Positions 4,297 to 63,110 of a stretch of DNA of 64,000 bases are shown here, piece by piece. The DNA is from a bacterium (lineage in GTDB: Bacteria > Patescibacteriota > CPR2 > UBA1875 > JAJYID01), in NCBI GenBank assembly GCA_021787535.1, contig JAJYLR010000003.1:56-64055 (forward strand). Direction: 5' to 3'. Each line of letters opens with the position of its first letter. The stretch's first letter is position 1. A program made the position numbers and the translations under genes. Below the pieces are notes generated by a model that saw nothing but the letters and a program-made list of their open reading frames with translations, ran no database searches and was not told the DNA's origin.

Positions 4297-4417
4297 ATCT
4301 TGCAATTTCTAAATCCGAATTTCTAATTTCTAAACAAATTCAAATGATCAAAATCCAAAATAATCAAACAAAAATTCCGATTCAAACATTTCACCTTTAA
4401 CATTTAATATTAAAAAT

Positions 4418-5632
4418 ATGGCTAGATTTAAATACACAGGCAAAGATGGGTCAGGCAATATGACCAAAGGTTATGTAAGCGCCTTTTCAGAAGAAGAGGC
4501 AGCTGTACTTTTAGGAAAAAACAAGATTACCCCCATCGTTATTACCAAGGACAATAATATTTTAGTCCGCATTAAAGATATTCATTTGTTTGACCATCTT
4601 TCATTAACCGATAAAATGATGTTTTGCGAGGAATTATCTACTCTCATTAACGCCGGTGTTCCGCTTGCCCAGTCAATAAGCATTATTAAAGAACAGACTC
4701 AAAAGGGAACGATGAAAAAAATCGCTGCCAATCTTCTGGGAGATATAGAAGGGGGCCAGTCGCTCTCGGGGGCGCTTGAAAAACAAGGGAGGTTTTTCTC
4801 TCCGGTGTTTGTGAATATGGTGAAAACCGGTGAAACGAGCGGAACGCTGGACGAAACTTTACGGGATTTAGCTGTGCAAACAGAAAAAGATCATGATCTT
4901 GTCTCGAAGATCAGGGGAGCTATGACTTATCCCGCTGTGATTTTGGTTGTTATGACCGGGGCTATCATCTTTCTTATGGTCAAGGTTGTCCCGGCTATCT
5001 CCGGTCTCTTCGATGAGCTTGGCGCTACGCTTCCTTTGACCACGCGGATTATGATAGCTGCAAGCCGGATCATGGTGCATGACGGCATTTTTCTGGCCAT
5101 CGGCGCGATAGCGGTGATCGCGGGAATATACTTTGCTTTGACCAGGGTTGCGCCTATCCAAAAAAGTTTTCATGCGGCCATTTTAAAAGCCCCGATTATA
5201 GGTAAAATTTCCTTAAGGTTTAATCTGGCTCGATTTTCAAGGACTTTGGGATCGCTCCTTGGAAGCGGTGTGAGTGTCTTGGAGGCACTGGAAATTGTTT
5301 CTCATTCAACCAAAAACGTTATATTTTCAAATGAGATAGAACAAGTCAAAGAAAGAGTAAAAAACGGCGCGCCGCTTGCGGAACCGCTGAAACAGTCTAA
5401 GATTTTCCCGGTCATGGTCTCTCAAATGATCGGCGTTGGAGAAGAAACAGGCAATCTTGACAAAATGCTGATCAAAGTAGCCGAGTTTTATGAGAGGCAG
5501 ATTGAAAGCTTTACCAAAAATCTTTCAAGCATCATTGAGCCGATTATTATGCTCATTGTCGGCGTTGCTGTCGGTTTTATTATTGTTTCTATTATTACTC
5601 CGATTTATCAAGCTACTCAGAACATTAAGTAA
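4418..5632 (+). CDS. pilC: Type IV pilus inner-membrane platform protein PilC (GspF family)
   Basis: About 400 aa with two GspF-like repeats and three TM segments, immediately downstream of pilB. Confidence 0.85.
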   Translation: MARFKYTGKDGSGNMTKGYVSAFSEEEAAVLLGKNKITPIVITKDNNILVRIKDIHLFDHLSLTDKMMFCEELSTLINAGVPLAQSISIIKEQTQKGTMKKIAANLLGDIEGGQSLSGALEKQGRFFSPVFVNMVKTGETSGTLDETLRDLAVQTEKDHDLVSKIRGAMTYPAVILVVMTGAIIFLMVKVVPAISGLFDELGATLPLTTRIMIAASRIMVHDGIFLAIGAIAVIAGIYFALTRVAPIQKSFHAAILKAPIIGKISLRFNLARFSRTLGSLLGSGVSVLEALEIVSHSTKNVIFSNEIEQVKERVKNGAPLAEPLKQSKIFPVMVSQMIGVGEETGNLDKMLIKVAEFYERQIESFTKNLSSIIEPIIMLIVGVAVGFIIVSIITPIYQATQNIK

Positions 5633-5769
5633 AAATGTTGGAAGTGCGGAAACCGTTGGAGATGTTGGATATTAGAAACAAACCCGCGCACCATCTCAAA
5701 GTACGGGGCAGGCAATTCCGACAAGCGAAGCGATCCGCCAATTCTAACAATTCCTGCTTTAATTAATCA

Positions 5770-5799
5770 TTGACATACAGTTTGAAACAAACTTATAAT
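5770..5799 (+). promoter_or_regulatory. Sigma70-type promoter for the major pilin (TTGACA-18-TATAAT)
   Basis: TTGACA at 5770-5775 and TATAAT at 5794-5799, about 40 nt upstream of the pilin start. Confidence 0.5.
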
Positions 5800-5841
5800 G
5801 GCGCTGTAACTTAAAATGGCTATGCCAGAAAGGAGGTGAAA

Positions 5842-6234
5842 ATGTTAAGTAAGCTGCAAAATAAACGAGGTTTTACCTTGATTGAACTTTTGATTGTTGT
5901 CGTTATTTTAGGCGTCCTTATTTTGATTGTTATCGGTGCAACCAGAGGTGATAAAGGCAAGGCAAACGATGCCAAAAGGAAAGCCGACCTCACTCGCATC
6001 CAGAATGCCTTGGAAGATTGTTATTCAGTGCCATCAGGTACAACCGGCGGATATCCGACCAGTTTAAGCGATACCTGTGTTCAACAAAAATTTGATAATA
6101 ACACTGTGCCGACTGATCCAAAAGATGGAGCAAGCTATAGCTATACTACGACAGGTACTCCTCCTACTACCTATAATCTTTCAACCACTGAGATGGAAAG
6201 AGAATCTAATATGACATTGACGCAAAAACAGTAA
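5842..6234 (+). CDS. Type IV major pilin (prepilin-type N-terminal cleavage/methylation domain)
   Basis: MLSKLQNKRGFTLIELLIVVVILGVL matches the class III signal peptide, G/FTLIE. AGGAGG lies 6 nt upstream of the ATG at 5842. A strong promoter sits upstream. Confidence 0.8.
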   Translation: MLSKLQNKRGFTLIELLIVVVILGVLILIVIGATRGDKGKANDAKRKADLTRIQNALEDCYSVPSGTTGGYPTSLSDTCVQQKFDNNTVPTDPKDGASYSYTTTGTPPTTYNLSTTEMERESNMTLTQKQ

Positions 6235-6301
6235 AAGTATTTGTTCTAAAAAACAGTCCTAAGGGGCTGTTTTTTAGTGGGATAAAAGTTATAATAGATA
6301 T

Positions 6302-6691
6302 ATGCGGAGGGGAATCTTAAAAAACAGCCGGGGAGTGACGCTGACTGAGATTATTATCTTGGTGGTGGTTGTTGCTGTTTTTGCTATTACCTTTATTCCG
6401 CTTGTTACTGAAAATATGGTGGCGAATACCAAGGCAAAGACTCAACTTGCCGCTTATGAGGCGGCCCATCAAAAAATGGAGGAGCTTAGAAATACAAGTT
6501 TTGATACTCTTGCAAGCGGCGCATTTCAAACACCTAATGTTCAGGGGGGGAGCGGTACAGTGACGATTACTCCGGATATAAATGGTGACGGACAAGATGA
6601 ACAGGGTATTGTCAAGGCGGATGTTCAGGTGGCTTATCCCGATCGCGGCCAGACGAAAACTGTAACTTTAACGACCTTTATAGCGCAATGA
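6302..6691 (+). CDS. Pilin-like / minor pseudopilin
   Basis: N-terminal GVTLTEIIILVVVVAVFAI resembles a prepilin signal followed by a hydrophobic helix. Confidence 0.5.
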   Translation: MRRGILKNSRGVTLTEIIILVVVVAVFAITFIPLVTENMVANTKAKTQLAAYEAAHQKMEELRNTSFDTLASGAFQTPNVQGGSGTVTITPDINGDGQDEQGIVKADVQVAYPDRGQTKTVTLTTFIAQ

Positions 6692-7266
6692 AAACATTAG
6701 GCCAAAAAGGATTTACCATTATCGAAATGACTATAGCTGTTGTTATTTTAGGCATAATAGTAGTGGTGATCAGCGATATGTATTTAAAGGGCACCATTTC
6801 TTCAAAAACAGAAATGGCGAGGTCTAAGCTGCAGATTGAAGAGAAAAATGCACTTGAAGGAATAACTAACAATGTTACGCTGAGTACAAAAATCGATTCC
6901 GATTACGGCAGCGGCGCATACACGGGAGGGCAACAAACCTTGATTTTAGACTTGCCGGCTATAGACAGCGGCAATAATTTTCTATATAGCGGCAGCCAGA
7001 AAGTCCATGATTATATAATTTATTATCTAAGCGGTTCGGATTTGCATAAGCTTGTTTATTCAAGCGATCCTGATAGCCGGCTGCATTCTGAAGACGGCAG
7101 CGACCAAATATTGCTTTCCGATGTCAAAAGCTTGTCATTTACCTATGATGCTGCTCTGCCAAATAGCGTAACAGTAACAACAAATCTGATAATTCAGGAT
7201 ACTGCCCAAAATCCGCCGCAGGAAGTAAACATGAGCTCAAAAGCAATGAGGAGGAATAGTGACTAG
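6688..7266 (+). CDS. Minor pilin (prepilin-type N-terminal domain)
   Basis: KGFTIIEMTIAVVILGIIVVVI. The gene overlaps its neighbours by 4 nt. Confidence 0.6.
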   Translation: MKTLGQKGFTIIEMTIAVVILGIIVVVISDMYLKGTISSKTEMARSKLQIEEKNALEGITNNVTLSTKIDSDYGSGAYTGGQQTLILDLPAIDSGNNFLYSGSQKVHDYIIYYLSGSDLHKLVYSSDPDSRLHSEDGSDQILLSDVKSLSFTYDAALPNSVTVTTNLIIQDTAQNPPQEVNMSSKAMRRNSD

Positions 7267-8524
7267 CAAGAAATTTTCAATTTTCAATTTTCAATTTTCA
7301 ATGTCCCTGATTTTGCGGCCGCTTAGAAATAGGCAGCTTTTGCCAAGCCGCCAGGGATCAATCTTGGTTCTATTTATTATTGTTCTGTCTGTCATGACTA
7401 CGATCGTTCTGGCCGTTTCGGGGCTTGTTTTAAATAACCGGATTGGAGTTGAGCGGACTTATCAGAAAGACAAAGCTTTAAATATTGCCGAGGCGGGGAT
7501 ACAAAAAGCGCTGTGGGAACTAAAGGGTCATAACCCATCCTATACCGGAGAAACGGGTAATACTTACATTGCGGGCGGGGAATTTGATGTTACAGTCACT
7601 CAAATTGATGCGAACAACGATTACATTACATCAACAGCTTATGTTCCCTCGAAAGCCAATCCTAAATACAAAAAAGCGATCAAAGTTAAAATATCTGATA
7701 CGCCGGTTACTACAAATCCGGCCTTTAGCTACGCTATTCAGGCGGGAGCAGGAGGTATCGATGTGGGCGGATCGAGCGAGGTACATGGCAGTCTTTATTC
7801 TAATGGTGCAATCTCTGTATCAGGCGCATCAGCAACAGTAAATGATCCCGGAGATGCTTGGGCAGTCACAACTATTACCGATCCCAAAGGCGGAATCAAA
7901 GGCACTAAAACGCAAGGAGCCCAGCCGGTAGCTTTGCCGACTATTGACTTGAACCAATGGCGGTCTTTGGCCCAAGCTGGCGGGACCATTACCGGCGACT
8001 ATTCTCCGCCTGCGACCGGTAGTTACACCAATTTTGGACCAAAAGAAATTACGGGGAATTTTTCAATGTCCGGATCAAATCAAAAAATGAATCTAATGGG
8101 GCCTTTGTATATCCACGGCAACCTAAATATTAGCGGTGGCGAATGGAAACTTGATGATTCCTTCGGGTCCAATGGCACGATAGTTTTGGTCGACGGCCAA
8201 ATCAGTATTACCGGAGGCGACTTTCATGGCAATTCCAGCGGATCTTATATTTTATTTATTTCTACTAGTACCGCTAACACTAAAGACAGCGGTTCTGCAA
8301 TATATTATAGAGGCAATGCTAATGGTGAAAAGCTGGCTCTTTATGCATATAATGGAGCGATGACGTTGGCAGGTTCCGGCGAAATTATCGCAATGACCGG
8401 ACAAACCTTGTTTTTAAACGGCAGCGGAGAGATACACTATGACAGCGGCCTGAAGTCCGAACAGTTTGCCGGCGGCCCCGGCGGGACTTGGGTTGTGAAA
8501 GAATGGCAGGAGATATCGCCCTGA
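7259..8524 (+). CDS. PilX-like large minor pilin (PilX N-terminal domain)
   Basis: GTG start after AGGAGG. RQGSILVLFIIVLSVMTTIVLAVSGL resembles PilX_N. The C-terminal region is rich in G, S and T. Confidence 0.55.
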   Translation: MTSKKFSIFNFQFSMSLILRPLRNRQLLPSRQGSILVLFIIVLSVMTTIVLAVSGLVLNNRIGVERTYQKDKALNIAEAGIQKALWELKGHNPSYTGETGNTYIAGGEFDVTVTQIDANNDYITSTAYVPSKANPKYKKAIKVKISDTPVTTNPAFSYAIQAGAGGIDVGGSSEVHGSLYSNGAISVSGASATVNDPGDAWAVTTITDPKGGIKGTKTQGAQPVALPTIDLNQWRSLAQAGGTITGDYSPPATGSYTNFGPKEITGNFSMSGSNQKMNLMGPLYIHGNLNISGGEWKLDDSFGSNGTIVLVDGQISITGGDFHGNSSGSYILFISTSTANTKDSGSAIYYRGNANGEKLALYAYNGAMTLAGSGEIIAMTGQTLFLNGSGEIHYDSGLKSEQFAGGPGGTWVVKEWQEISP

Positions 8525-8733
8525 CGGGAATGACTAATTAACAATTTCTAATGTCTAATCAAATTCAAATGACCAAATTTCAAAAATTGACGTTTATAAA
8601 TTAGGTATTGTTAAGTATTGATTAGACATTAGAAATTAGGATTTAGAAATTACTCATATGAATTGCTTAAATACTTTGGTTTAAATATAATAAAGATAAT
8701 TATAAAAAGATTAGTTAAGTTACCGGAGGGTTT

Positions 8734-9786
8734 TTGCTTAAGCAAGATCTGATTTATAAAGAAAAAGATTGCCTGGGGCTTGATATCGGCGCCAGTTCGG
8801 TTAAAATCGTCCAGCTTAAAAAGAAAAAGTCGCTGACAAAGTTGATGGGCTACGAAAGCAAGGCGCTTCCGGAGAATATCATTATCGAAGGTGTGATTTC
8901 CGAGCCGGAAAAATTGGCTCAAATGATTAAAGGCATGATAAGCGAGACGAAGGAAGGCAAGTTTACTGCAAAAAAAGCCATTGCTTCAATACCAGATGCA
9001 AATGTTTTCACCAGAGTTTTGGAGATGCCGCCTCTTTCCGCTAAGGAACTGAAAGAAGCTCTCATGTGGGAAGCGGATCAGTCAATACCGATGGCTATGA
9101 CTGATCTTGTCATTGATTGGCAGGTCCTCGGCCCGTCTATTACCAAAAAAGGCATGAATGATATCCTGCTTGTTGGGGCGCCGCTTGCGATTGTCAACTC
9201 TTATGTCCAGCTCTTTGACAAACTAGGTCTCCAGCCGGAAGCGATTGAAACTAGTTTGGTCTCAGTTATTCGGGCGCTTGTGTCAAATAAGGAGCGCGAT
9301 GAAGTAATGCTAGTTGTCGATATTGGATCAAGGTCTACAAACTTAGGTTTTTATGATCATACTCTGCGGCTGGCCGACAGTTTGGATTTCGGCGGATTAA
9401 ACTTTACAGATGCGATCAGGGCCGGCGCTCAAGTTGACGAAAAAAAAGCTGAGGAAATGAAAATGAAAATTGGGCTGAAAGATAAAAAAGTCGCCGAAGC
9501 GCTTGATAGTATTCTTGCCAATTTGAAGAGTGAGATGAGCAAAGTTATTAAATATCACGATGAGAGAAATGAAACTAAGACTTCGAAAGTTATTCTTTGC
9601 GGAGGATCTTCGAACCTTATAGGTCTGACAGAATACTTGGCTGAGGCACTGAAAGTAGAGGTTAAGGTCGGAAATCCATGGGTTAATATCGACACTTATC
9701 CTTTAAAGCCCGTGCCGAAAGCCGAAGCTCCTGCATATGCCAATGCTATCGGGCTTTCGCTGAGGGCTATGGAGGCAATAGTATGA
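8734..9786 (+). CDS. pilM: Type IV pilus assembly protein PilM (actin-like ATPase)
   Basis: LGLDIGASSVKIVQL N-terminal actin-fold motif. TTG start after GGAGGG. It is followed by pilN and pilO. Confidence 0.8.
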   Translation: MLKQDLIYKEKDCLGLDIGASSVKIVQLKKKKSLTKLMGYESKALPENIIIEGVISEPEKLAQMIKGMISETKEGKFTAKKAIASIPDANVFTRVLEMPPLSAKELKEALMWEADQSIPMAMTDLVIDWQVLGPSITKKGMNDILLVGAPLAIVNSYVQLFDKLGLQPEAIETSLVSVIRALVSNKERDEVMLVVDIGSRSTNLGFYDHTLRLADSLDFGGLNFTDAIRAGAQVDEKKAEEMKMKIGLKDKKVAEALDSILANLKSEMSKVIKYHDERNETKTSKVILCGGSSNLIGLTEYLAEALKVEVKVGNPWVNIDTYPLKPVPKAEAPAYANAIGLSLRAMEAIV

Positions 9787-10355
9787 TCCAGGTTAATTTA
9801 TTGCCTGAAGAGATACGGGAAAACATTAACTTTTCTAAGAAGAATCGAAAAGTTTTAAATCTTTTGAAAATGATATCTATCCTCTGCCTTTTCATATTAG
9901 CCGGTTTCCTGATCATTGGAGCATCACTTCTTTCCAGCAGCAGTTTCTTTAAAAAAGCGATTAGCGAGTCTACAGATACTCTGAGATCCTATCAGCCCAG
10001 TATCGATGAAAAAGAAAACATAGAAAACAAAGGGGTGATCGTCGCTAATATTCGGAAAAACTATAGATATTGGACTAAGTTCAACTATATCTTAGCTGAG
10101 AACACGCCTCAAGGGATTTATCTCTCCACGGTAGCCAACAAAAATAAGACTTTGCAAATAGAAGGTTATGCGAAGACTAAAAACGATGTCGGGATTTTTA
10201 GGGACGCTCTAGGCAAAAGCTCTGCTTTTTCAAATGTGAACATCGAGAGTATAAAAGAAGTGCCGGATCCTCTAAATCAGAACCTTCAAGTGAATGACTT
10301 CATCATGACTATGGCGCTTGAGAATGCGGCGACAAATCAGGGAGGCGGACGATGA
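9783..10355 (+). CDS. pilN: PilN
   Basis: MIQVNLLPEEIRE N-terminus with one TM segment, translationally coupled to pilM. Confidence 0.7.
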   Translation: MIQVNLLPEEIRENINFSKKNRKVLNLLKMISILCLFILAGFLIIGASLLSSSSFFKKAISESTDTLRSYQPSIDEKENIENKGVIVANIRKNYRYWTKFNYILAENTPQGIYLSTVANKNKTLQIEGYAKTKNDVGIFRDALGKSSAFSNVNIESIKEVPDPLNQNLQVNDFIMTMALENAATNQGGGR

Positions 10356-10933
10356 GAGTGAAAAAAATAAATGCGCGGTCGCTTCTCGGAATCCTTTACG
10401 GATTTTTAGGGCTTATTATAATCTTAACGTTGGCAGCCGGGGTATATCTTGCCCTCAAGGTAAATGACCTGAGCTTAGAGGTAGCAAAAAACAGATATTT
10501 ATCGGTAAATAACAATCAGAAAATAGAGGCCCTCGCTAACCTTCAAAAAAATTTAAAAGAAATGTCTGATGAAAAGGCGCTTTTGGATAGCTATCTGCCT
10601 CAGGATAAAGAAGTTTCCAGTATCTTGAAGGACTTTGAAACATTATCGGGGGCAAATGGCTTAAGTTTCAGTATTTTTACCGCCGGCGAAGGATCTTCAA
10701 CCACAACATTCAAACCTTCGAGCGACCAGACGCAAAAGTCCGGCAACTATTATGTTTTTCCATTTCAGGTGACTGTCAACGGCAGCTTCGCCCGCATCAA
10801 CCTAATGATGAGGGAAATGGAAAATTATAAGAGATTAGTAGAAATCAAAGATATTAAGTATGCAAAAGATACCAGTGCCCCGTCAGATATTACAGAGGCA
10901 GTTTTACAAGTTAACGCTTATTTAAAAAAATGA
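10352..10933 (+). CDS. pilO: PilO-like
   Basis: Single TM plus a periplasmic domain, in operon position after pilN. Confidence 0.5.
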   Translation: MRVKKINARSLLGILYGFLGLIIILTLAAGVYLALKVNDLSLEVAKNRYLSVNNNQKIEALANLQKNLKEMSDEKALLDSYLPQDKEVSSILKDFETLSGANGLSFSIFTAGEGSSTTTFKPSSDQTQKSGNYYVFPFQVTVNGSFARINLMMREMENYKRLVEIKDIKYAKDTSAPSDITEAVLQVNAYLKK

Positions 10934-17170: not shown

Positions 17171-17251
17171 GATTCTGGACAAGCCAGAATGACAAAGGGA
17201 AAGGGATTCCTCCGCTTGCCCCGTCGGACGGGGTTGTCGGTCGGAATGACA
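17171..17251. repeat. Two repeat units (GATTCTGGACAAGCCAGAATGACA + GGATTCCTCCGC...GTCGGTCGGAATGACA) between CIRCE and the hrcA start
   Basis: Hairpin ATTCTGG-acaag-CCAGAAT followed by GACA. The second unit closely resembles the 3' half of the murD insert. Confidence 0.65.
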
Positions 17252-17258
17252 AAAACCT

Positions 17259-17969
17259 ATGACATCACGCAGAGAAGCGATATTAGAAGCGATTGTTCGT
17301 GAATACGTCGAAACGGCGGAGCCGGTTGGCTCTTTAACGCTTGTTCGGAAGTACGCTTTTCCTTACTCCTCAGCCACGATTCGTGCTGAGATGGCCATGC
17401 TGGAGGAAAATGGCTTCATCATGCAACCGCACACTTCAGCGGGAAGAATTCCGACCGAAAAGGGTTATAAATATTTCGTCAAAATGATTGAGAATGAAGA
17501 AAAAAGCCTGGCCGGTCGTGAGGAGGATATATTAAAAAAGCGCATTGAAGCTATGCATGCTCAATACGAGCGTAAGTTTGACGCCGCCGCGCTGGCACTG
17601 GCCGAGATGACTAGAAATGTAGCGCTTTCTACGCTTGGCCAGGAAGTGTATTCGCATGGTTTGGCAAACCTTTTCCGCCAGCCGGAGTTTATAGATACGG
17701 ATCGCGTGCTGGGGATAGCCGACATGATTGACAACATGAGCACGCTGTTAAACGAATTACCCAGAAGCAAGAATTTCATGGTTCTGGTTGGCTCCGAGAC
17801 GCCTATTGGCAAGTCAGCCGACGCATCACTTGTCATATCGAGAGTAGACACTCCCTACGGGGTTCGCGGATATTTAGGTGTCTTGGGTCCCACCAGGATG
17901 AGTTATGAAAGGGTAATTCCATTAGTTAAACGCACCAGAGATTTGCTGGAGAATGATTTAAATAGGTAG
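17259..17969 (+). CDS. hrcA: Heat-inducible transcription repressor HrcA (short form)
   Basis: N-terminal winged helix ILEAIVREYVETAEPVGSLTL and C-terminal GVLGPTRMSYERVIPLV. CIRCE lies upstream. Confidence 0.8.
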   Translation: MTSRREAILEAIVREYVETAEPVGSLTLVRKYAFPYSSATIRAEMAMLEENGFIMQPHTSAGRIPTEKGYKYFVKMIENEEKSLAGREEDILKKRIEAMHAQYERKFDAAALALAEMTRNVALSTLGQEVYSHGLANLFRQPEFIDTDRVLGIADMIDNMSTLLNELPRSKNFMVLVGSETPIGKSADASLVISRVDTPYGVRGYLGVLGPTRMSYERVIPLVKRTRDLLENDLNR

Positions 17970-18053: not shown

Positions 18054-18087
18054 TGTCATTCCCGCTCAGGCGGGAATCCAGACAAGC
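18054..18087. repeat. Repeat unit TGTCATTCCCGCTCAGGCGGGAATCCAGACAAG
   Basis: Same termini with a different hairpin stem. Lies upstream of grpE. Confidence 0.5.
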
Positions 18088-18141
18088 AATGTTAAATAGT
18101 TAATTATAGAATTTTAAATAAATTTAGAAAGATCAAGAAGT

Positions 18142-18729
18142 ATGAAAGAGAAAGACAAGAAAGCCAAAGGCAAAAAGGAAGACCAACTGGATTCCCGCCG
18201 GAGTTTATCCGACGAAGCTAAAGCGTGGGCGGGTGGGAATGACAAGAAAGAGGTCAGGAATGAAAATATAGAAGCCGAGCATGACAAGGGTCAGACCCTT
18301 GCAATGGAAAATGTTGCTTTGAAGAAGATGCTGCAGCGGGCACAGGCGGATTTTATAAATTACCGCCAGCGTGCAGAGCGGGAGAAGTCAGAAATGGTCG
18401 ATTACGGCAAGCTGGAGACGATTAAGGAGCTTCTGCCGGTATTCGACAACTTCGAACGGGCCAGAAACCATTTCCCGAAGGAGCTGGAGAAGAATGATTG
18501 GGCGCAGGGGATGCTCGCGGTAGAGAAGCAGTTTGTCCAGAAAATGGAAGAAATGGGGATTAAGAGAATCCCGACAGTCGGCGAGCAATTTGATCCAAAT
18601 TTACATGAGGCAATACACATGGAGCCGGCAAAAGGCAAGAAATCGAATGAGATTACCTGCGAATACGAACCGGGATACATATATAAAGATAAAGTTTTAA
18701 GGTATGCAAAGGTAAAGTTGGCAAAATGA
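18142..18729 (+). CDS. grpE: Nucleotide exchange factor GrpE
   Basis: Coiled-coil N-terminus, LLPVFDNFERA motif and a C-terminal beta domain. Confidence 0.8.
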   Translation: MKEKDKKAKGKKEDQLDSRRSLSDEAKAWAGGNDKKEVRNENIEAEHDKGQTLAMENVALKKMLQRAQADFINYRQRAEREKSEMVDYGKLETIKELLPVFDNFERARNHFPKELEKNDWAQGMLAVEKQFVQKMEEMGIKRIPTVGEQFDPNLHEAIHMEPAKGKKSNEITCEYEPGYIYKDKVLRYAKVKLAK

Positions 18730-19412
18730 AGTTTGAACTAAAAAGGTACAATAAAGGTCCTAGAAAAGATTATCGCAATATAACTAATGAGGAGCTGATT
18801 ACTGATTTGCGGGATGTCGCTAATAGGTTACAGAAAGAGTCAGTCACTCATGGAGAATACGACCAGAATGGCAGATTTAATAGTCATATTTTTGGTAGAA
18901 GGTTTGGAGGTTGGTTGAACGCACTTGAAGAAGCTGGTCTTCAAAAAACAAGAAATTATCAAATAGCTGATGAGGAAGCATTTCAAAATTTAGAGAATGT
19001 TTGGATGAAACTGGGGCGACAACCTAGGCGCGAAGATTTACATAGACCACTTTCAAAGTATAGCGGAGCATTCTATGAATATCGATTTGGTGCATGGAGC
19101 AAGGCGCTGGAAAAGTTTATTAATTATATTAACAAGGCAGAACTCAGTACATTAGAGAGATCCGAAAATACAACAAGTAATCCGAGTATTCAACATAAAA
19201 CAAATAGGAATATAAATTTGCAGTTACGTTTTATTGTCATGAAAAGAGATAATTTTAAATGTCAAAAATGTGGTCGATCGCCAGCAACTGACTCGAGCAT
19301 AATTCTACATGTTGATCATAAAAAAGCATGGGCGAATGGTGGTGAAACAGTATTGGAAAACTTGCAGACACTTTGTTCGAAGTGCAACATAGGTAAAAGC
19401 GATTTGGAGTAA
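18726..19412 (+). CDS. Free-standing HNH endonuclease with two homing-endonuclease-associated repeats
   Basis: C-terminal HNH signature: CQKCG...LHVDHKKAWANGGETVLENLQTLCSKCN. N-terminal repeats read RFGGWLNALEEAGL and YRFGAWSKALEKF. ATGA overlap with the grpE stop. Confidence 0.75.
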   Translation: MKFELKRYNKGPRKDYRNITNEELITDLRDVANRLQKESVTHGEYDQNGRFNSHIFGRRFGGWLNALEEAGLQKTRNYQIADEEAFQNLENVWMKLGRQPRREDLHRPLSKYSGAFYEYRFGAWSKALEKFINYINKAELSTLERSENTTSNPSIQHKTNRNINLQLRFIVMKRDNFKCQKCGRSPATDSSIILHVDHKKAWANGGETVLENLQTLCSKCNIGKSDLE

Positions 19413-21575: not shown

Positions 21576-21671
21576 TGTCATCCTCGGACTTGATCCGGGG
21601 ATCCAGACAGTCAGTGGGAAATTGACTGGATCCCCGCCTTCGCGGGAATGACAAAAAGAAGGGGAATGACA
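21576..21671. repeat. Repeat element with nested palindromes (TGTCATCC...CGCGGGAATGACA, GGGGAATGACA)
   Basis: CCGGGGATCC...GGATCCCCG long stem. Two GAATGACA ends. Lies immediately after the dnaK stop. Confidence 0.55.
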
Positions 21672-23253: not shown

Positions 23254-23365
23254 AAGGAATGGCGGGGGTGTAAGGATTTGCAAAAGGGCAGGGCGTTCGC
23301 GCCCCGCCCATTCAATTTAAGAGACAATTTAGATAGAAATTTGGTATAATTTTTATATAGATTCC

Positions 23366-23384
23366 TGTTTTCACGGGAATGACA
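23366..23384. repeat. 3'-end fragment of the repeat (TTCACGGGAATGACA), 11 nt before the dnaJ start
   Basis: Matches CTTCGCGGGAATGACA at 21640-21653. Confidence 0.4.
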
Positions 23385-26801: not shown

Positions 26802-26825
26802 GATTCTGGACAAGCCAGAATGACG
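26802..26825. repeat. Repeat unit GATTCTGGACAAGCCAGAATGAC
   Basis: Identical to the unit at 17171-17195. Confidence 0.55.
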
Positions 26826-27953: not shown

Positions 27954-28172
27954 GTATTCCCTCCAGTCTTAGAGTATAAACAATTTTATTATAGGTAGAA
28001 GGGATGATCAGTGTAAAGGGGATTTTATAAATGACTAATTAAGAATTTCTAATGTCTAATCAATAACCAATGAGCTAATTTTAAATTTTGCTAACAAGGA
28101 CTGTCCTTGAAAGACAGTCCTGAAGAACAATCATTTTGTACTTTACACTTCTTCTATTACAATAAATACATT

Positions 28173-28851: not shown

Positions 28852-28876
28852 GATTCTGGTCAAGCCAGAATGACAG
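28852..28876. repeat. Repeat unit GATTCTGGTCAAGCCAGAATGACA
   Basis: One substitution relative to the 17171 copy. About 60 nt upstream of the M16 peptidase gene. Confidence 0.55.
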
Positions 28877-30239: not shown

Positions 30240-30264
30240 GATTCTGGTCAAGCCAGAATGACAA
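30240..30264. repeat. Repeat unit GATTCTGGTCAAGCCAGAATGACA overlapping the annotated ndk start
   Basis: The ATG of the GAATGACA motif is in frame with ndk. Confidence 0.55.
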
Positions 30265-30779: not shown

Positions 30780-30893
30780 AATGATCAATAACCAATTGCC
30801 AATATCCAATCAATGTTAAATAACTGAGTTTTAAAATTTCAAATTGGGATTTGATTAGTCATTGGTAATTGAAAATTAGAAATTTACAAACCT

Positions 30894-42611: not shown

Positions 42612-43115
42612 ATGATTATTATTATGAATACGCTTGTTATTTTATCTGCCAAATATCTCTACATTGTCATCATTTTGGCGGCGATAGGTTTGACATTTTA
42701 TAAAACCAAGATGGAAAAGCGCATAGAAATGATTGTCACAGCTATTTTTGCAGCTATTATTGTTTTGGCTCTTATTTGGTTATCCAGACACTTAATCTAT
42801 TCAGCCAGGCCTTTTGTCGTCGGTCACTTCACACCCCTCATTCCGCACGTGGCTGACAACGGCTTCCCGTCAGACCACACCGCCATTTCCATGGGCGCGG
42901 CTCTCGTAATTTATCTATTCAACAAATATGCCGGCATCATCCTGGCCGTTTTGGCTCTCTGGGTCGGCATCGCCAGGGTTCTGGCCGGTGTCCATCATCC
43001 GATCGATATTTTTGGCAGTATTATCATTGCTCTCATTGCCATCATGGCGGCAAAACTAATTTTAAAGCGCTGTCCAAAGCTCCTATCCTGCCCAATGAAG
43101 AAGTTGGGGAAGTGA
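42612..43115 (+). CDS. PAP2-superfamily phosphatase (undecaprenyl-diphosphatase-like)
   Basis: PSDHTAISMGAAL and GVHHPIDIFG motifs. Confidence 0.7.
   Translation: MIIIMNTLVILSAKYLYIVIILAAIGLTFYKTKMEKRIEMIVTAIFAAIIVLALIWLSRHLIYSARPFVVGHFTPLIPHVADNGFPSDHTAISMGAALVIYLFNKYAGIILAVLALWVGIARVLAGVHHPIDIFGSIIIALIAIMAAKLILKRCPKLLSCPMKKLGK
43027..43112 (+). repeat. Direct repeat A: the functional 3' end of the PAP2 gene
   Basis: About 85% identical to 44564-44650. Confidence 0.65.
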
Positions 43116-44563: not shown

Positions 44564-44650
44564 TTGCTCTCATTGCCGTCATGGCGGCAAAACTAATTTT
44601 AAAGCGCTACCCCAAACTCATATCCTGCCCAATGAAAAAGATAGGGAAAG
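44564..44650 (+). repeat. Direct repeat B: a non-coding remnant copy of the PAP2 3' end
   Basis: TTGCTCTCATTGCCGTCATGGCGGCAAAACTAATTTTAAAGCGCT...TATCCTGCCCAATGAA. Confidence 0.65.
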
Positions 44651-51621: not shown

Positions 51622-51714
51622 TTAAGCTTAACTCGTGCTAAAATATGCAGGTTATTATTTAGAATTTTGGATTTGATTGTAAATGATTCATTGGAAATTG
51701 AAAATTAATATATA

Positions 51715-56716: not shown

Positions 56717-56796
56717 TGTCATTCTGGCGACGATAGGAGACCAGAATCTAAAGGTTACCACACAAGATACAGATTCTGGACAAGCCAGAATGACAC
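56717..56796. repeat. Composite repeat (TGTCATTCTGGCGACGATAGGAGACCAGAATC ... GATTCTGGACAAGCCAGAATGACA)
   Basis: Left-end and right-end units separated by about 25 nt. About 60 nt upstream of mntH. Confidence 0.6.
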
Positions 56797-58323: not shown

Positions 58324-59058
58324 ATGATCGGAATATTTGACTCAGGGATAGGCGGCCTTTCTTTATACAAAAAAGCCAAGAAAGCAATGTCGGATAAGAC
58401 ATTTATATATTTAGCTGATCAGGATAGCTTTCCTTACGGCGAAAAATCGGAAAAAGAGTTGCGTGCCCTCACTAGGAAAAATATTAAGCTGCTGGAAAAC
58501 TTAGGGGCAAAGGTTGTACTCATTGCTTGCAATAGTGCTACGGTTAGTTCAAGAGACAGGATCAGAAGAGAGTTTGACATTCCGCTTGTCGGGGTTGAGC
58601 CGGCAGTCAAGGTTGTACATGATCTATACAGTAATAAAAAAGCATTAGTCCTTGCCACAGACAGGACTTCTCGCTCGCATTTGAAAAACAAAGCCGCAAG
58701 CTATGGTAATGTCAAAATTATCGGCGCAAACGGCCTAGTGAGTTTAATTGAAGAAAAATTTCCAAATATTCAAGCAAGTGAATTAAAGAATATTCTGGAT
58801 AATAAGATTGATGGAGAAGAAGTCATCGTTCTTGGCTGTACGCATTATCATTTAATCCAAAAGATATTAGAAAGCATATATCCCGATAAGATATTCATCG
58901 CTCCGGAAGAGGCGGTGATAAAGCAGCTCAGTAAATTCTCTGACTTGGCGACAGGCAGCGGGGCGGATGACATCTTTCTGACAACTGGAGATTTGGCAGG
59001 TTTTCAGGTAAAATTAGAGGCGATTATAGGCAGGAAATGTGATGTTAGAAAAATATAA
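58324..59058 (+). CDS. murI: Glutamate racemase
   Basis: IGIFDSGIGGLS, LIACNSAT and VLGCTHY. Confidence 0.85.
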   Translation: MIGIFDSGIGGLSLYKKAKKAMSDKTFIYLADQDSFPYGEKSEKELRALTRKNIKLLENLGAKVVLIACNSATVSSRDRIRREFDIPLVGVEPAVKVVHDLYSNKKALVLATDRTSRSHLKNKAASYGNVKIIGANGLVSLIEEKFPNIQASELKNILDNKIDGEEVIVLGCTHYHLIQKILESIYPDKIFIAPEEAVIKQLSKFSDLATGSGADDIFLTTGDLAGFQVKLEAIIGRKCDVRKI

Positions 59059-60538
59059 AGGCAAAAAAATATTGATTGCGGGGTTTGAAACGGAAGGCAA
59101 AGCTACTTTCGATTTTCTAAGGCAAAACGGCATCAGGGCCGACATTGCCGATCTTCTCACCCCCGTCATTCCCGCCCCCGATCGGGTCGAGGGTAAAGCT
59201 CCGGCGGGAATCCAGCCCAGCCCTACCCAAGTTTTTACGGGAAAAGACTATCTTAATTCTGCTTCGGATTATGATGTTATCTTCCGGACGCCCGGCTTAT
59301 CTCCGCTCAATCCTTTACTTTTAGGGGCGCAGAAGAACGGAACTGAGGTAACAAGCCAGATCAAGCTTTTTATGGAGCTTTGTTCGGCTAAGACCATCGG
59401 CGTTACAGGGACGAAAGGTAAGGGCACAACAGCCACTCTGATTTATGAAATTTTGCAGGCAAGCGGCAAGGATGTGTATCTGGGCGGAAACATTGGGGTG
59501 CCGGCTATTTCCTTGATTGATGAATTAAACAAAGATTCGATCGTTGTCCTGGAGCTTTCCAGCTTTCAGCTCATGGATTTGGACAGGAGTCCAAATATTG
59601 CTGTGGTTTTGGGGATTACAAGCGAGCACCTGGATTATCACAAAAACAGGGATGAATATGTTGATGCCAAGAAATCTATTGTTAAGTTTCAGAGGTCAGA
59701 AGACTTTGCGGTTATCAATACAGATTACGAAACCTCCAGTTCGTTTGCCGGTCTCACTCAAGCAGATATTTTTGAAGTTTCAACCCTCTCCCCTGTCATC
59801 CCGAGCGAAGCGTTAGCGAAGTCGAGGGATCTCTTAAATTATGATGAGAGAAAGGGATTCCTCCGCTCGTCCTTGCAGGAAGTCGGTCGGAATGACAGGA
59901 TTTGCGGCGGTTGTTATGTCGATGAAAATGATGAAATTATCTTGATCGGGAAAAATGAGGAAGAAAAAATTGCTTCATTCAGTGAATTACAGCTTCGCGG
60001 CCGGCATAACCTGGAAAATGTTTGTGCAGCCGTCATGGGGTCATCTCTTGCCGGAGCCGACTTTGAATTAATCCGCAAAACAGTGAGGTCTTTCAAAGGG
60101 CTTGAACATCGGCTCGAGTTTGTTGCCGAAAAAGGCGGAGTTAAATATTATAACGATTCATTCTCGACGACTCCGGAATCAACAATTGCCGCAGTCAAAG
60201 CTTTCGAAGAACCGGTGCTACTCATAGCCGGAGGAAGCGAAAAAGGGTCGGATTATTCGGAAATGAGTGAGGTAATAGCTAAGAAAGCCAAAACTATATT
60301 TCTGATAGGACAAACAGCTAACAAAATAAAAAGACAAATCTTAAAAATAAACCCTAAAGCAGATGTCCGGGAGGGATATGAAAATATGGAAGATTTGGTA
60401 AAAAGGGTGGATAACGCCAGTAAACCCGGAGATGTGGTTGTGCTTTCACCTGGATGCGCCTCTTTTGATATTTTTCAAAATTACAAGGAGCGCGGTGATC
60501 TTTTTAAGGAAGCAGTTGCTAAGTTAATTAGGGATTAG
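59039..60538 (+). CDS. murD: UDP-N-acetylmuramoylalanine--D-glutamate ligase (MurD) carrying an in-frame repeat-element insertion
   Basis: GVTGTKGKGTTATLIYEIL P-loop and Mur ligase middle and C-terminal domains. The residues STLSPVIPSEALAKSRDLLNYDERKGFLRSSLQEVGRNDRI are translated from the repeat at 59794..59897. Confidence 0.8.
   Translation: MMLEKYKGKKILIAGFETEGKATFDFLRQNGIRADIADLLTPVIPAPDRVEGKAPAGIQPSPTQVFTGKDYLNSASDYDVIFRTPGLSPLNPLLLGAQKNGTEVTSQIKLFMELCSAKTIGVTGTKGKGTTATLIYEILQASGKDVYLGGNIGVPAISLIDELNKDSIVVLELSSFQLMDLDRSPNIAVVLGITSEHLDYHKNRDEYVDAKKSIVKFQRSEDFAVINTDYETSSSFAGLTQADIFEVSTLSPVIPSEALAKSRDLLNYDERKGFLRSSLQEVGRNDRICGGCYVDENDEIILIGKNEEEKIASFSELQLRGRHNLENVCAAVMGSSLAGADFELIRKTVRSFKGLEHRLEFVAEKGGVKYYNDSFSTTPESTIAAVKAFEEPVLLIAGGSEKGSDYSEMSEVIAKKAKTIFLIGQTANKIKRQILKINPKADVREGYENMEDLVKRVDNASKPGDVVVLSPGCASFDIFQNYKERGDLFKEAVAKLIRD
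59794..59897. mobile_element. MITE-like repeat copy inserted in-frame within murD
   Basis: TGTCATCCCGAGCGAAGCG...AGGGATTCCTCCGCTCGTCCTTGCAGGAAGTCGGTCGGAATGACA. Its 3' half is near-identical to 17200-17251. Confidence 0.65.
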
Positions 60539-63047: not shown

Positions 63048-63110
63048 TGTCATTCTGGCTTGTCCAGAATCTCTATTTTGTCATTCCACGTCTGATTCGG
63101 GATCTAAAAT
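63048..63110. repeat. Two left-end repeat units (TGTCATTCTGGCTTGTCCAGAATC; TGTCATTCCACGTCTGATTCGGGATC)
   Basis: Lies downstream of the MBL hydrolase gene. Confidence 0.5.

Follow-up and report, generated by a model that had tools for sequence, protein, structure and literature searches.

A repeat copy lies in frame inside murD

The question raised by this locus is how a hairpin-forming repeat came to lie in frame inside the gene of an essential enzyme, and what kind of element it is. The gene, murD (UDP-N-acetylmuramoylalanine--D-glutamate ligase), lies at 59039–60538 on the forward strand of a 64-kb window, by which we mean the whole stretch of DNA analysed, and encodes 499 aa from the GTG at 59039 or 498 aa from the ATG at 59042. 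The ORF matches Pfam Mur_ligase_M and Mur_ligase_C, MurD is the best PDB match of its product both by sequence and by fold, and the protein retains 52 of the 52 columns that are invariant across 119 orthologues. The AF2 model agrees with MurD crystal structures, with a mean pLDDT of 89.5 and values below 70 only at residues 41–60 and 251–290. An earlier note on this DNA had described a single insert in murD; two repeat-derived segments are present within the gene, at 59164–59215 (site 1) and 59794–59897 (site 2), and the N-terminal Pfam domain is undetected in the protein that carries them.

The longer segment is a two-armed element of 104 bp, TGTCATCC...GGAATGACA, that occupies residues 252–287 in frame and on the forward strand (59794–59897). 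It reads TGTCATCCCGAG...GTCGGTCGGAATGACA and encodes ...STLSPVIPSEALAKSRDLLNYDERKGFLRSSLQEVGRNDRI... without a stop codon, the ORF staying open throughout as the earlier note had proposed. The left arm (59794–59833, forward strand; TGTCATCCCGAGCGAAGCGTTAGCGAAGTCGAGGGATCTC) is an NTS-variant hairpin in forward orientation, of a type also found upstream of a GIY-YIG gene in the related loci L002 and L141 and in the murD insert of L006. The right arm (59853–59897, forward strand; AGGGATTCCTCCGCTCGTCCTTGCAGGAAGTCGGTCGGAATGACA) is a hairpin in reverse orientation that recurs in L002, L141 and L142 on the downstream side of the GIY-YIG gene. The 3′ half had been recognised as a near-duplicate of an intergenic copy, and indeed 44 of 56 columns align with 17196–17251, the differences being confined to the inner stem-loop. 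Both the 16-mer GTCGGTCGGAATGACA and the 15-mer AGGGATTCCTCCGCT occur twice in the window (at 59853–59897 and 17202–17251), where the chance expectation at up to 3 mismatches is 0.29 for the former and 1.7 for the latter, and GGAATGACA occurs 9 times against 0.5 expected. As ssDNA, the 104-bp element folds with −23.6 kcal/mol (z = −3.6). A search of the window with Rfam returned five tRNAs only and no RNA family over the repeat elements, the whole 120-nt element had no match in a phage collection, and the right-arm 19-mer had none in IMG/VR. An intron, an intein and ribosomal bypass were each considered and rejected: the insert is 35 aa long, with no intein motifs, no in-frame stop and no match to an intron model.

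Alignment with orthologues bore out the proposal of a lineage-specific insertion. The loop between '..VST' and 'GCYV' has 5–7 residues in 115 of the 119 MurD orthologues and 40–52 residues only in the window protein and in P0002, P0003 and P0010; solved MurD structures show the same gap opposite the 104-bp insert. A homologous peptide at this position in unrelated taxa would have spoken against such an insertion; none was seen in any unrelated taxon, and only three relatives from the same clade carry repeat-derived inserts there. The window loop has 41 residues rather than 6, a net gain of 35 aa. The location first suggested needs correction: the insert sits in a beta-hairpin turn between strands 243–248 and 288–294, inside the central domain (Pfam M domain, residues 122–332), and not between the central and C-terminal domains. 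Structure prediction with the insert supported the idea of a surface loop: the enzyme is otherwise modelled with confidence, and the insert leaves this fold as a poorly ordered stretch, with pLDDT of 45–65 and two short predicted helices at 257–265 and 270–280.

The four filled orthologues have common flanks, LS[PS]... and ...I/D-x-G, that are unlike the empty loops. P0012, which is 82% identical to the filled P0003, is empty at both murD sites, and its loop, KKKVER, resembles the KKKVEK of the outgroup. Native residues at both murD sites look replaced and not merely interrupted. Neither the murD junctions nor those of the cassette described below show a direct repeat (target-site duplication), and a clean junction between filled and empty alleles could not be defined; since native loop residues have been replaced, the original murD junctions may be eroded.

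A second repeat-derived segment in the N-terminal domain

The second segment (59164–59215, forward strand; PVIPAPDRVEGKAPAGIQ) corresponds to residues about 42–59 and replaces a helix of the MurD N-terminal domain. It has NTS-like ends, CGTCATTCCCGCC...GGCGGGAATCCAG, around an enlarged loop; read as exact NTS ends, CGTCATTCCCGC...GGCGGGAATCCAG, these enclose a loop of 26 nt. The region spans 21–25 aa in most orthologues and is not repeat-like there, and in the window protein its pLDDT is 60–66. Its 51 nt are identical to L001:3630–3680 and differ by 1 nt from copies in L004 and L007, which lie at the other murD site in genomes whose MurD is only 66–72% identical. Near-identity of a 51-nt module across such divergent genes is, at the level of sequence, indicative of youth or homogenisation of the modules.

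The repeat family within the window

About 21 NTS/dRS3-like hairpins were found at 15 loci in the 64-kb window, 12 of the 15 loci being intergenic; the copies described here were all annotated on the forward strand. The intergenic relative of the murD element is a solo right-arm copy (17202–17251) that ends 7 nt upstream of the hrcA start codon (HrcA ORF 17259–17969), and beside it lies a simple hairpin module, GATTCTGGACAAGCCAGAATGACA (17171–17194), of family D2, which has five copies. Between hrcA and grpE is an NTS-like hairpin, TGTCATTCCCGCTCAGGCGGGAATCCAG (18054–18081), with 2 mismatches to the published NTS consensus CGTCATTCCCGCGMAVGCGGGAATCYRG (PMC11893778). Its 25-nt core matches, at 25 of 25 positions, a copy that lies next to the GIY-YIG locus of N. 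gonorrhoeae, and by synteny the same hrcA-grpE position holds a nuclease cassette in L002 and L141. A further hairpin arm, CTGGATTCCCGCC...GGGTGGGAATGACA (18187–18244), lies in frame at the 5′ end of the grpE ORF (18142–18729); Pfam GrpE begins at residue 35, and window GrpE has an N-terminal extension of 34–36 aa relative to L002 and L141.

The remaining copies are simple or composite. Composite intergenic elements are found at 145–234 (TGTCATTCTGAA...CCGGAATGACA, two hairpins; fold z = −2.8), at 21576–21653 downstream of dnaK (both hairpins fitting the published SRM pattern; fold z = −3.6) and at 56717–56795 upstream of an Nramp gene (fold z = −6.3). Simple intergenic modules lie at 23360–23384 upstream of dnaJ (GATTCCTGTTTTCACGGGAATGACA), at 26802–26824 (GATTCTGGACAAGCCAGAATGAC), at 28852–28875 upstream of an M16 peptidase gene and at 30240–30263 at the 5′ end of ndk, where the first ATG of the ORF falls within GAATGACA. 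Two adjacent intergenic modules (63048–63071 and 63079–63104, together 63048–63104) follow a Lactamase_B gene, and related genomes carry modules at the matching intergenic position. Downstream of Lactamase_B, L001 and L003 are 97–100% identical and differ only inside a hairpin loop; this pair yielded no clean filled and empty alleles that would define junctions, and a composite element lies where synteny ends.

An arm-nuclease-arm cassette in related genomes

A longer form of the element was present in related genomes. L002:13442–13846 is a 405-bp cassette with TGTCAT...ATGACA at its ends, in which a left and a right hairpin arm enclose a gene for a 96-aa Pfam GIY-YIG protein. Over its whole length the murD element aligns with the left (54 nt) and right (60 nt) arms of this cassette; the murD copy retains both arms and the short spacers, and the gene is absent. 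This end-to-end alignment with both arms identifies the murD element as a gene-less, MITE-like derivative. The same cassette is found at hrcA-grpE in L141, a WS5 genome; in L142 a variant whose arms are truly inverted lies at a different site, with a tyrosine recombinase gene on one side and comEC on the other. In all, the arm pair encloses the nuclease gene across three genomes and two genomic settings.

The cassette nuclease shares 46% identity (92% of its length aligned, E = 3e-19) with the product of the only GIY-YIG locus in N. gonorrhoeae, a locus that likewise has NTS repeats on its flanks, and the nearest solved relatives of the nuclease are small GIY-YIG proteins of the UPF0213 type. 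The NTS consensus, ssDNA cleavage by SsnA and the NTS-ssnA-NTS layout were described in 2025 (PMC11893778), and nucleases of the Ssn type cleave ssDNA beside hairpins of this kind in Neisseria and in three further species that were tested (PMC11893778). Transposition has not been reported for Ssn nucleases, and that work remarks on the IS-like architecture alone (PMC11893778). No ssn-like gene was found in the 64-kb window by tblastn with the cassette nuclease, and a Pfam search of the 40 window ORFs of 150 aa or longer gave an HNH homing endonuclease but neither a transposase nor a small GIY-YIG gene.

In-frame modules recur in other housekeeping genes

The earlier note had called in-frame palindromic insertions rare outside Rickettsia, a view that fails in the relatives of this bacterium. 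In-frame modules were found in related contigs in UvrC (4), MiaA, GatB, MurT, GatD, a MiaB-like enzyme and a membrane protein, a count drawn from a handful of such contigs, and Pfam domains are interrupted accordingly in the module-bearing UvrC, MiaA, GatB, MurT, GatD and MiaB-like proteins. Both stop-free frames are used across the examples, giving peptides of the form VIP.../...ND in one and CHS or RHP.../...MT in the other. The NTS/dRS3-like, Ssn-related repeat family can thus invade protein-coding genes. Such inserts matter for the annotation of metagenomes, where they inflate protein lengths, break domain models and create spurious conserved peptides.

Stem covariation points to constraint on the DNA hairpin

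Comparison of the copies separated the behaviour of the DNA from that of the encoded peptide. In the right-arm stem, 6 of 12 pairs have changed on both strands in a compensatory way, and pairing in the inner helix is 100%; none of 500 shuffles scored as high, and controls slid along the sequence were 29–50% paired. Residues of the insert track these changes, LQ, LR and FY following TCCT/AGGA, TCGC/GCGA and TCAT/ATGA. Among the four filled lineages the insert peptide is very different, and the frame is open in all four. Because stem positions co-vary between copies, including the murD copies, it is the nucleic acid that is under constraint and not the peptide.

Probable origin and spread of the murD element

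As the arm alignment shows, the 104-bp segment is a MITE-like, non-autonomous copy of the arm-ssn-arm cassette; we consider it likely that it is tolerated in MurD and has been spread by an Ssn nuclease together with allele exchange. A copy landed in, or was imported into, the beta-hairpin turn of the MurD central domain, and at site 1 repeat-derived sequence took the place of a dispensable N-terminal-domain helix. The two inserts are probably tolerated because they form surface excursions, use a stop-free frame (one of two) and have a net length that keeps the frame. The encoded peptide behaves as a passenger: since the stems change by compensatory substitutions, the target of the constraint or of the copying mechanism is the hairpin in the DNA, and changes in the amino acids are a consequence. 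The most likely agent is the Ssn-type nuclease of the cassette, which may mobilise or propagate the arms, and their spread may follow a single-strand pathway in which no target-site duplication arises. Filled and empty murD alleles may also have been exchanged by homologous recombination among co-occurring relatives, which would explain both the patchy distribution and the divergent patches around the two sites. Between L001 and L002 identity drops to 48–72% around both murD sites against a background of 87–100%. Such valleys are not confined to the insertion sites, the neighbouring Nramp gene being 52–75% identical throughout, and the related contigs are low-coverage metagenome assemblies (about 2x), so that strain chimerism could contribute.

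A more far-reaching version of this account is possible, and we put it forward tentatively: the arm-ssn-arm cassette may be a new kind of autonomous mobile element, driven by its 96-aa GIY-YIG ssDNA nuclease in place of a transposase, with the gene-less two-arm copies as its MITEs, able to enter essential genes of reduced-genome bacteria and to stay there in frame. If so, the copies in murD, UvrC, MiaA, GatB and MurT would be the first footprints of Ssn-associated repeats as mobile, protein-remodelling elements, and such intragenic repeats could also influence where recombination tracts from transforming DNA end.

It is also conceivable, if doubtful, that the element no longer transposes, and that a single ancient insertion into murD has since been spread and cured among related lineages only by homologous recombination through natural transformation, the arms looking young as a result of gene conversion by the many intergenic copies. 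Several observations fit this history. First, the filled orthologues have their common flanks. Second, the window and L006 have both arm types in common, and L004 shares the right arm. Third, the divergent patches between L001 and L002 are centred on both murD sites. Lastly, the window encodes the type IV pilus proteins PilB, PilC, PilM, PilN and PilO, and the GIY-YIG homologue of L142 lies beside comEC. The relationships among the alleles argue against it. Simple common ancestry of the four filled alleles is not favoured, the closest relative of P0003 being empty at both sites; the site-2 flanks of P0003 are likewise nearest to those of empty P0012 (81% aa), whereas the other filled alleles stand at 67–74%. 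Moreover, two unrelated left-arm types occur at site 2 among the filled alleles, the right arm of L001 is different, and modules lie in many different housekeeping genes, which implies many independent insertions at some time.

Mobilisation in trans of a conventional MITE- or RPE-type element by a DDE or tyrosine transposase, with the GIY-YIG gene captured between repeats and its link to them incidental, appears unlikely. It would account for the terminal inverted repeats, the small size, the many copies and the intergenic preference; candidate enzymes exist in an IS1595-family transposase gene on L002 and in the tyrosine recombinase gene that adjoins the L142 cassette, and in Neisseria and Coxiella IS110-type elements are known to target hairpin repeats of this sort. 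However, we rejected the IS1595 gene of L002 as the parent, since its surroundings hold no matching termini. The arm pair, moreover, brackets the nuclease gene repeatedly in separate contexts and its spacers are kept in the murD copy, and no target-site duplication was seen, though DDE transposition would leave one.

It is very improbable that the insert is a functional surface loop of MurD, exapted for interaction, regulation or localisation and kept by selection on the protein. The open frame in four lineages and the two short predicted helices would be expected of such a loop, but the low pLDDT of the segment, the divergence of its peptide among the four lineages while the DNA stems co-vary, and the existence of close relatives that lack it all weigh against this. 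Least credible of all is an artefact, in which the metagenome assembly was wrongly joined at a repeat, or a murD gene that is dead. The window protein is recorded from one contig only and the related MAG contigs have low coverage, but murD sequence in one and the same frame lies on either side of the insert and none of the invariant residues is missing, similar inserts lie at the same codon in independent assemblies from other samples (L004, L005, L007, L001 and L006), and the element copies are too divergent for k-mer collapse.

Our preferred reading, a cassette-derived copy spread by an Ssn nuclease and allele exchange, bears on a question left by the 2025 description of Ssn, namely whether the hairpin repeats are mobile and whether the arm-gene-arm unit is selfish or domesticated. 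A gene-less two-arm copy in a conserved essential gene makes the mobility of Ssn repeats testable, and defined arms, a candidate nuclease and filled and empty alleles are all obtainable from one environmental sample.

Comparison with known repeat systems

The element resembles REP/BIME repeats in its short GC-rich hairpins, often in mosaic clusters, and in the single small gene flanked by repeats, and in either case a mechanism that acts on single strands and makes no target-site duplication is plausible. Unlike REP/BIME-RAYT systems, it is associated with a GIY-YIG nuclease and a GTCAT flank and not with a Y1 transposase and a GTAG-type tetranucleotide; no Y1 (IS200/IS605-like) transposase was found among the 40 window ORFs or the genes called on L010 and related loci.

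It also has the traits of a MITE: it is small, encodes no protein of its own, has ends of the form TGTCATYC...GRATGACA and belongs to a family present at 15 loci in the 64-kb window, and it has the structure of an internal-deletion derivative of a longer gene-bearing element (L002:13442–13846) with the same ends. Its parent encodes a GIY-YIG nuclease, and no transposase activity is known for such a nuclease. Terminal inverted repeats, non-autonomy and multiple copies are shared with Coxiella QMITE1/2, enterobacterial ERIC/RU and Correia elements, and MITEs that overlap ORFs occasionally create in-frame fusions or extensions of genes (PMC5896051, PMC2759123, PMC10969869). In contrast to the murD element, the QMITE, ERIC, RU and Correia families have target-site duplications of 2–11 nt and no nuclease-cassette parent, and their ORF overlaps are mostly terminal, whereas the murD element is internal to an essential enzyme. 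Coxiella QMITE1/2 was rejected as an identity for the element: the size differs, its target-site duplications are 2–11 nt, and a relation in sequence was neither reported nor observed.

The likeness to Rickettsia palindromic elements (RPEs; Ogata et al. 2000, 2002, summarised in PMC10969869) that the earlier note had drawn holds for behaviour, but the family appears to be a different one, the hairpins being NTS/dRS3-like repeats associated with Ssn GIY-YIG nucleases (PMC11893778). Like RPEs as described, the elements are palindromic, 100–150 bp long, in frame in conserved housekeeping genes and absent from orthologues; they lie at fold-compatible positions and recur in many genes of small-genome bacteria. 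The host of the murD element, however, is WS5/Patescibacteria-like, to judge from the names of its nearest homologues, and not Rickettsia. Whereas each RPE family encodes a conserved peptide in one fixed frame, the murD-type element uses two frames and its peptide is not conserved; it is also modular, with two separable hairpin arms that elsewhere flank a GIY-YIG gene. The RPE phenomenon, selfish palindromes tolerated in proteins, is thereby extended to ultra-small uncultured relatives of WS5/Patescibacteria, with several housekeeping enzymes affected. Rickettsia and Wolbachia are listed among the genomes rich in Ssn-related motifs (PMC11893778), which we regard as a lead and not a result.

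The hairpins themselves belong with the NTS/SRM repeats. The hairpin core ATTCCC...GGGAAT and the oriented GTCAT flank are shared, as is the arm-gene-arm layout in related genomes with a 96-aa single-domain GIY-YIG protein. The dRS3 pattern ATTCCC-N8-GGGAAT is fitted exactly at 18058–18077 (ATTCCCGCTCAGGCGGGAAT), and the murD copies have longer or variant spacers. The published degenerate SRM pattern occurs in the window at 21576–21606 and 21626–21653 (0.21 expected in shuffles), with one further probable chance match, and the murD arms fail this search pattern. Unlike the published repeats, the site-2 arms are variants, GTCATCCCGAG...CGAGGGATC and GGATTCC...GGAATGACA, with long or nested loops. 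NTS/SRM repeats have been described as intergenic and mainly from Pseudomonadati, in a text that contains neither "Patescibacteria" nor "intragenic" (PMC11893778); what sets the murD copy apart from them is that it is a gene-less two-arm derivative inside a coding sequence.

An in-frame repeat insertion in murD

The open reading frame at 59039-60538 (+) encodes MurD. Pfam recognises Mur_ligase_M at residues 122-332 and Mur_ligase_C at 357-471, and among solved structures the best matches are without exception MurD proteins. Positions 59794-59897 read TGTCATCCCGAGCGAAGCGTTAGCGAAGTCGAGGGATCTCTTAAATTATGATGAGAGAAAGGGATTCCTCCGCTCGTCCTTGCAGGAAGTCGGTCGGAATGACA and translate without a stop as ...LSPVIPSEALAKSRDLLNYDERKGFLRSSLQEVGRNDR..., confirming the open frame reported through this 104-bp element in the earlier note. 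The 3' part of the element is repeated at 17202-17251, just upstream of hrcA; sequence reading and k-mer counts bore out the earlier description of the element and its duplicate (placed at 17200-17251). The 15-mer AGGGATTCCTCCGCT and 16-mer GTCGGTCGGAATGACA of the element occur exactly twice each in the window, with chance expectations at up to 3 mismatches of 1.7 and 0.29, respectively. The 3' half of the element, which holds its right arm (59853-59897), and the copy upstream of hrcA are identical in 44 of 56 aligned columns and differ only in the inner stem-loop.

The orthologue alignment that the earlier note proposed showed that the segment is an insertion, confined to the window MurD and three relatives (P0002, P0003 and P0010; 61-67% identity to it). 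In these four proteins the stretch from '..VST' to 'GCYV' spans 40-52 residues, compared to 5-7 residues in the other 115 of 119 aligned orthologues. An AlphaFold model based on this alignment (mean pLDDT 89.5) matches MurD crystal structures with a TM-score, normalised to target, of up to 0.84, and pLDDT values under 70 are limited to residues 41-60 and 251-290. Rather than lying between the central and C-terminal domains, as had been suggested, the insert is modelled as the turn joining strands 243-248 and 288-294, inside the central domain. The repeat copy recognised previously is also not the only one in the gene: a second repeat-derived segment had been missed at 59164-59215 (site 1), which reads CGTCATTCCCGCCCCCGATCGGGTCGAGGGTAAAGCTCCGGCGGGAATCCAG and encodes PVIPAPDRVEGKAPAGIQ. 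This region is a 21-25-residue helix-strand unit in most MurD orthologues and almost absent in 24, while the window MurD, P0003 and P0006 carry repeat-derived peptides instead of the unit. The Pfam MurD N-terminal domain was undetected in the window protein. Since all 52 columns invariant in the 119 sequences are kept, murD looks functional with both inserts, and the model shows a predicted fold that tolerates them. The murD finding is real and more structured than first supposed.

A nuclease cassette as parent of the element

The host belongs to an uncultured WS5/Patescibacteria-like lineage. A related contig that encodes a MurD without inserts (L002; MurD P0012) carries a cassette (L002:13442-13846) with a 96-aa Pfam GIY-YIG gene between hrcA and grpE, the gene having TGTCATCCCGAGCGACTTCGCGGAGCGACGAGCCGAGGGATCCCTTAAAAAAGC as its upstream and AGATAATAATGAAAAGGGATTCCTCCGCTCGCTACTAGCGTAGTGTCGGTCGGAATGACA as its downstream arm. 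When these two arms are joined, the murD element matches them from end to end: its first 15 nt, a block of 19 nt within the right arm and its final 16 nt are identical, and the spacers either side of the missing gene are recognisable. This alignment therefore shows the element to be a gene-less, MITE-like derivative of an arm-nuclease-arm cassette. A WS5 genome (L141) carries the same cassette, also between hrcA and grpE. On L142, a 107-kb contig (k141_17153) from the window's own sample, a variant was found whose arms are truly inverted; here a homologous 96-aa GIY-YIG gene (3001-3291) lies directly upstream of comEC (DUF4131, Competence and Lactamase_B domains) and downstream of a tyrosine recombinase gene. 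The cassette nuclease shares 46% identity over 92% of its length with the sole GIY-YIG locus of N. gonorrhoeae, which is flanked by NTS (E = 3e-19). Among solved structures, UPF0213-type GIY-YIG proteins come closest to the nuclease. At E < 1e-10 it has more than 1,200 homologues, many on very short contigs and some named WS5 or Patescibacteria.

Where L002 and L141 have the cassette, the window hrcA-grpE region (18054-18244) contains two NTS-type arms 105 bp apart without a gene, which may be a decayed or replaced cassette. The grpE ORF (18142-18729, +) begins between the arms, so the N-terminal extension of window GrpE, 34-36 residues relative to L002 and L141, includes one of them and runs through 18187-18244, QLDSRRSLSDEAKAWAGGNDKK. 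No in-frame ATG is present in the window at the L002/L141 GrpE start position. Between grpE and dnaK lies a free-standing gene (18726-19409, +) for an HNH homing endonuclease, in which Pfam finds HNH and a pair of 'homing endonuclease associated repeat' domains; its start overlaps the end of grpE at the stop codon. In the corresponding place, L002 and L141 carry different small unknown ORFs. Selfish genes seem to use the hrcA-grpE-dnaK operon as a landing site.

A dispersed family of hairpin repeats

The murD segment belongs to a dispersed hairpin family. Using the anchors GRATGAC and GTCATYC and then reading each site, we located about 21 hairpins at 15 loci, 12 of them intergenic, in four groups: composite two-hairpin elements (145-234, 21576-21653 and 56717-56795), which fold well as single strands (z -2.8 to -6.3); solo intergenic modules (17171-17194, 17202-17251, 18054-18081, 23360-23384, 26802-26824, 28852-28875 and 30240-30263); an adjacent module pair (63048-63104); and three copies in ORFs, two in murD and one at the 5' end of grpE (18187-18244). 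Rfam has no family for the window hairpin elements. The first ATG of the ndk ORF (30258) lies within the element terminus GAATGACA and its Pfam NDK domain begins only at residue 13, leaving the real start uncertain.

As an exact 24-mer, the simple module occurs in > 120 IMG/VR contigs, in at least 40 places per Neisseria genome, 17 times in Microcystis phage MaAM05, and also in Azospirillum, Legionella, Cupriavidus and sphingomonads. It contains the Neisseria dRS3 repeat, ATTCCC-N8-GGGAAT. About half of dRS3 copies were redefined in 2025 as the 28-nt NTS, CGTCATTCCCGCGMAVGCGGGAATCYRG; NTS-like 'Ssn-related motifs' (SRM) flank a small single-domain GIY-YIG gene (SsnA) across bacteria, SsnA cleaves ssDNA adjacent to a hairpin, and the NTS-ssnA-NTS layout resembles an insertion sequence (PMC11893778). 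Window 18054-18081 has two mismatches to the NTS consensus, and its 25-nt core GTCATTCCCGCTCAGGCGGGAATCC (18055-18079) is identical to a sequence beside the N. gonorrhoeae GIY-YIG locus (L140:476-500). Such short hairpin repeats are near-identical across phyla, here between an uncultured lineage and the gonococcus. Only two window hairpins match the published degenerate SRM pattern (0.21 expected in shuffles). The murD arms, with longer or nested loops, do not match it, and their family membership therefore rests on the cassette alignment.

Other repeats were also observed. An AT-rich intergenic family (4304-4364, 8529-8651, 28030-28090, 30780-30884, 51658-51707, 239-281 and 7272-7314), whose units include AATTTCTAATGTCTAATCAA and TTGATTAGACATTAGAAATT, is present as both direct and inverted copies and often adjoins hairpin modules and tRNA genes. 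An 85-nt direct repeat (89% identity) at 43027-43111 and 44564-44648, the 3' ends of a PAP2 and an amidase_3 gene, brackets about 1.5 kb.

In-frame modules in other proteins

Metagenome contigs yielded four real copies of a 19-mer from the right arm. No more than about 10 kb from these copies or from the earlier loci, in-frame modules were found in several proteins, with Pfam domains confirmed and matching length excesses: UvrC (L015:1876-3459, four insertions), MiaA (L014:2738-3904, including a fourfold PPVIPAS repeat), GatB (L013:7446-8942), MurT (L014:5232-6659), GatD (L014:8125-8907), a MiaB-like radical SAM enzyme (L014:673-2007) and a membrane protein (L008:2289-3830). Between them, these proteins read the termini in the two stop-free frames; the third holds a TGA and is never used among these cases. 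MiaA has four in-frame tandem copies of the left terminus (PPVIPAS PPVIPAS PFVIPAS PPVIPAEAGIQ), and the murD of L001 has three tandem GGAATGAC ends, suggesting that the element terminus undergoes slippage or repeated nicking.

Conservation of the hairpin over the peptide

Across seven right-arm copies (three in murD genes, one in the MiaB-like gene and three intergenic), both sides of the stem have changed in 6 of 12 pairs. The inner helix is paired in all seven, in four compensated versions (TCCT/AGGA, TCGC/GCGA, TCAT/ATGA and TCAC/GTGA), and the outer helix changes from ATTCC/GGAAT to ATTCT/AGAAT or ATTTC/GAAAT. With the structure read from the same sequences, the covariation score was reached by 0 of 500 shuffles and pairing was 93%, compared to 29-50% in slid controls. 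Comparison of the copies thus shows co-variation of the hairpins. In the murD frame these compensatory changes turn SLQE into SLRE or SFYE, so the amino acids follow the hairpin, suggesting that constraint acts on the DNA and not the peptide, with the caveat that the structure was read from the same sequences.

The elements evidently change in their hairpin loops, and nested palindromes appear to arise there preferentially. In a stretch of DNA where L001 and L003 are 97-100% identical, the only difference lies inside one hairpin and involves a nested palindrome rich in GC: when L001:6850-6900 is compared with L003 and L002, the 20-nt palindrome CCTGTCTGCCGGCAGGCAGG is opposed by an unrelated 24-nt insert between TCTGG and CTTGTCCAGA.

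History and possible spread of murD alleles

The distribution of the inserts is patchy: P0003 is filled at both sites and P0012 empty at both, although the two are 82% identical overall and 95% in the C-terminal third. The P0012 loop, KKKVER, resembles the outgroup KKKVEK. Window site 1 and site 2 of L001 share an identical 51-nt module, which is one base off those of L004 and L007. Since the MurD proteins carrying these near-identical modules are only 66-72% identical, the modules are either young or homogenised. Between the L001 and L002 murD genes, the backbone is 87-100% identical in nucleotides, with patches of 48-72% identity, a few hundred bp each, centred on both insertion sites; this pattern, from low-coverage metagenome assemblies, suggests that filled or empty patches were exchanged by homologous recombination. 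The adjacent Nramp gene, too, is divergent along its whole length. The murD sites show no visible target-site duplication, and native residues at both were seemingly replaced, not split. The history could be either repeated insertion at a permissive site, or a single old insertion after which alleles were exchanged and arms converted.

The neighbourhood of murD also varies. A glutamate racemase gene (Asp_Glu_race; 58324-59058, +) lies between Nramp and murD in the window, overlapping the murD start; in L001, L002 and L004, murD directly follows Nramp. Upstream of the DUF3048-Nramp-murD block, L002 (1985-3340) and L004 (4372-5349) have a reverse transcriptase gene (RVT_1), accompanied in L002 by a bAvd accessory gene, which looks like a diversity-generating retroelement; no RVT_1 gene was seen in the annotated part of the window. 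The window also holds a type IV pilus gene set (2347-10933: PilB-like ATPase, PilC, pilin-like N_methyl proteins, PilM, PilN and PilO). Type IV pili are the machinery usually linked to DNA uptake in such small-genome bacteria.

Proposed mechanism and comparison with known systems

From published SsnA biochemistry and the cassette architecture, we infer that an Ssn-type nuclease may propagate the arms by a single-strand route; the alleles probably spread by recombination. Two results count against this proposal: a tblastn search of the 64-kb window and a Pfam scan of 40 of its ORFs (at least 150 aa) found no Ssn-type nuclease or transposase gene, and no junction signature was found at the murD inserts. 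Full-text literature searches returned nothing on palindromic elements or MITEs in Patescibacteria/CPR or on characteristic insert peptides, and the words Patescibacteria and intragenic are absent from the Ssn paper (PMC11893778). The murD case offers a concrete handle for asking whether Ssn cassettes can move.

Several parallels with known systems can be drawn. First, the position of the L142 GIY-YIG gene beside comEC is in keeping with the connection to natural transformation that has been published for Ssn nucleases. Second, the divergent patches at the murD inserts recall Neisseria, where dRS3-adjacent genes show higher diversity. Lastly, in-frame palindromic insertions have precedents in Rickettsia RPEs and in a small number of other MITEs; murD shows an RPE-like phenomenon, here via Ssn-associated hairpin repeats.
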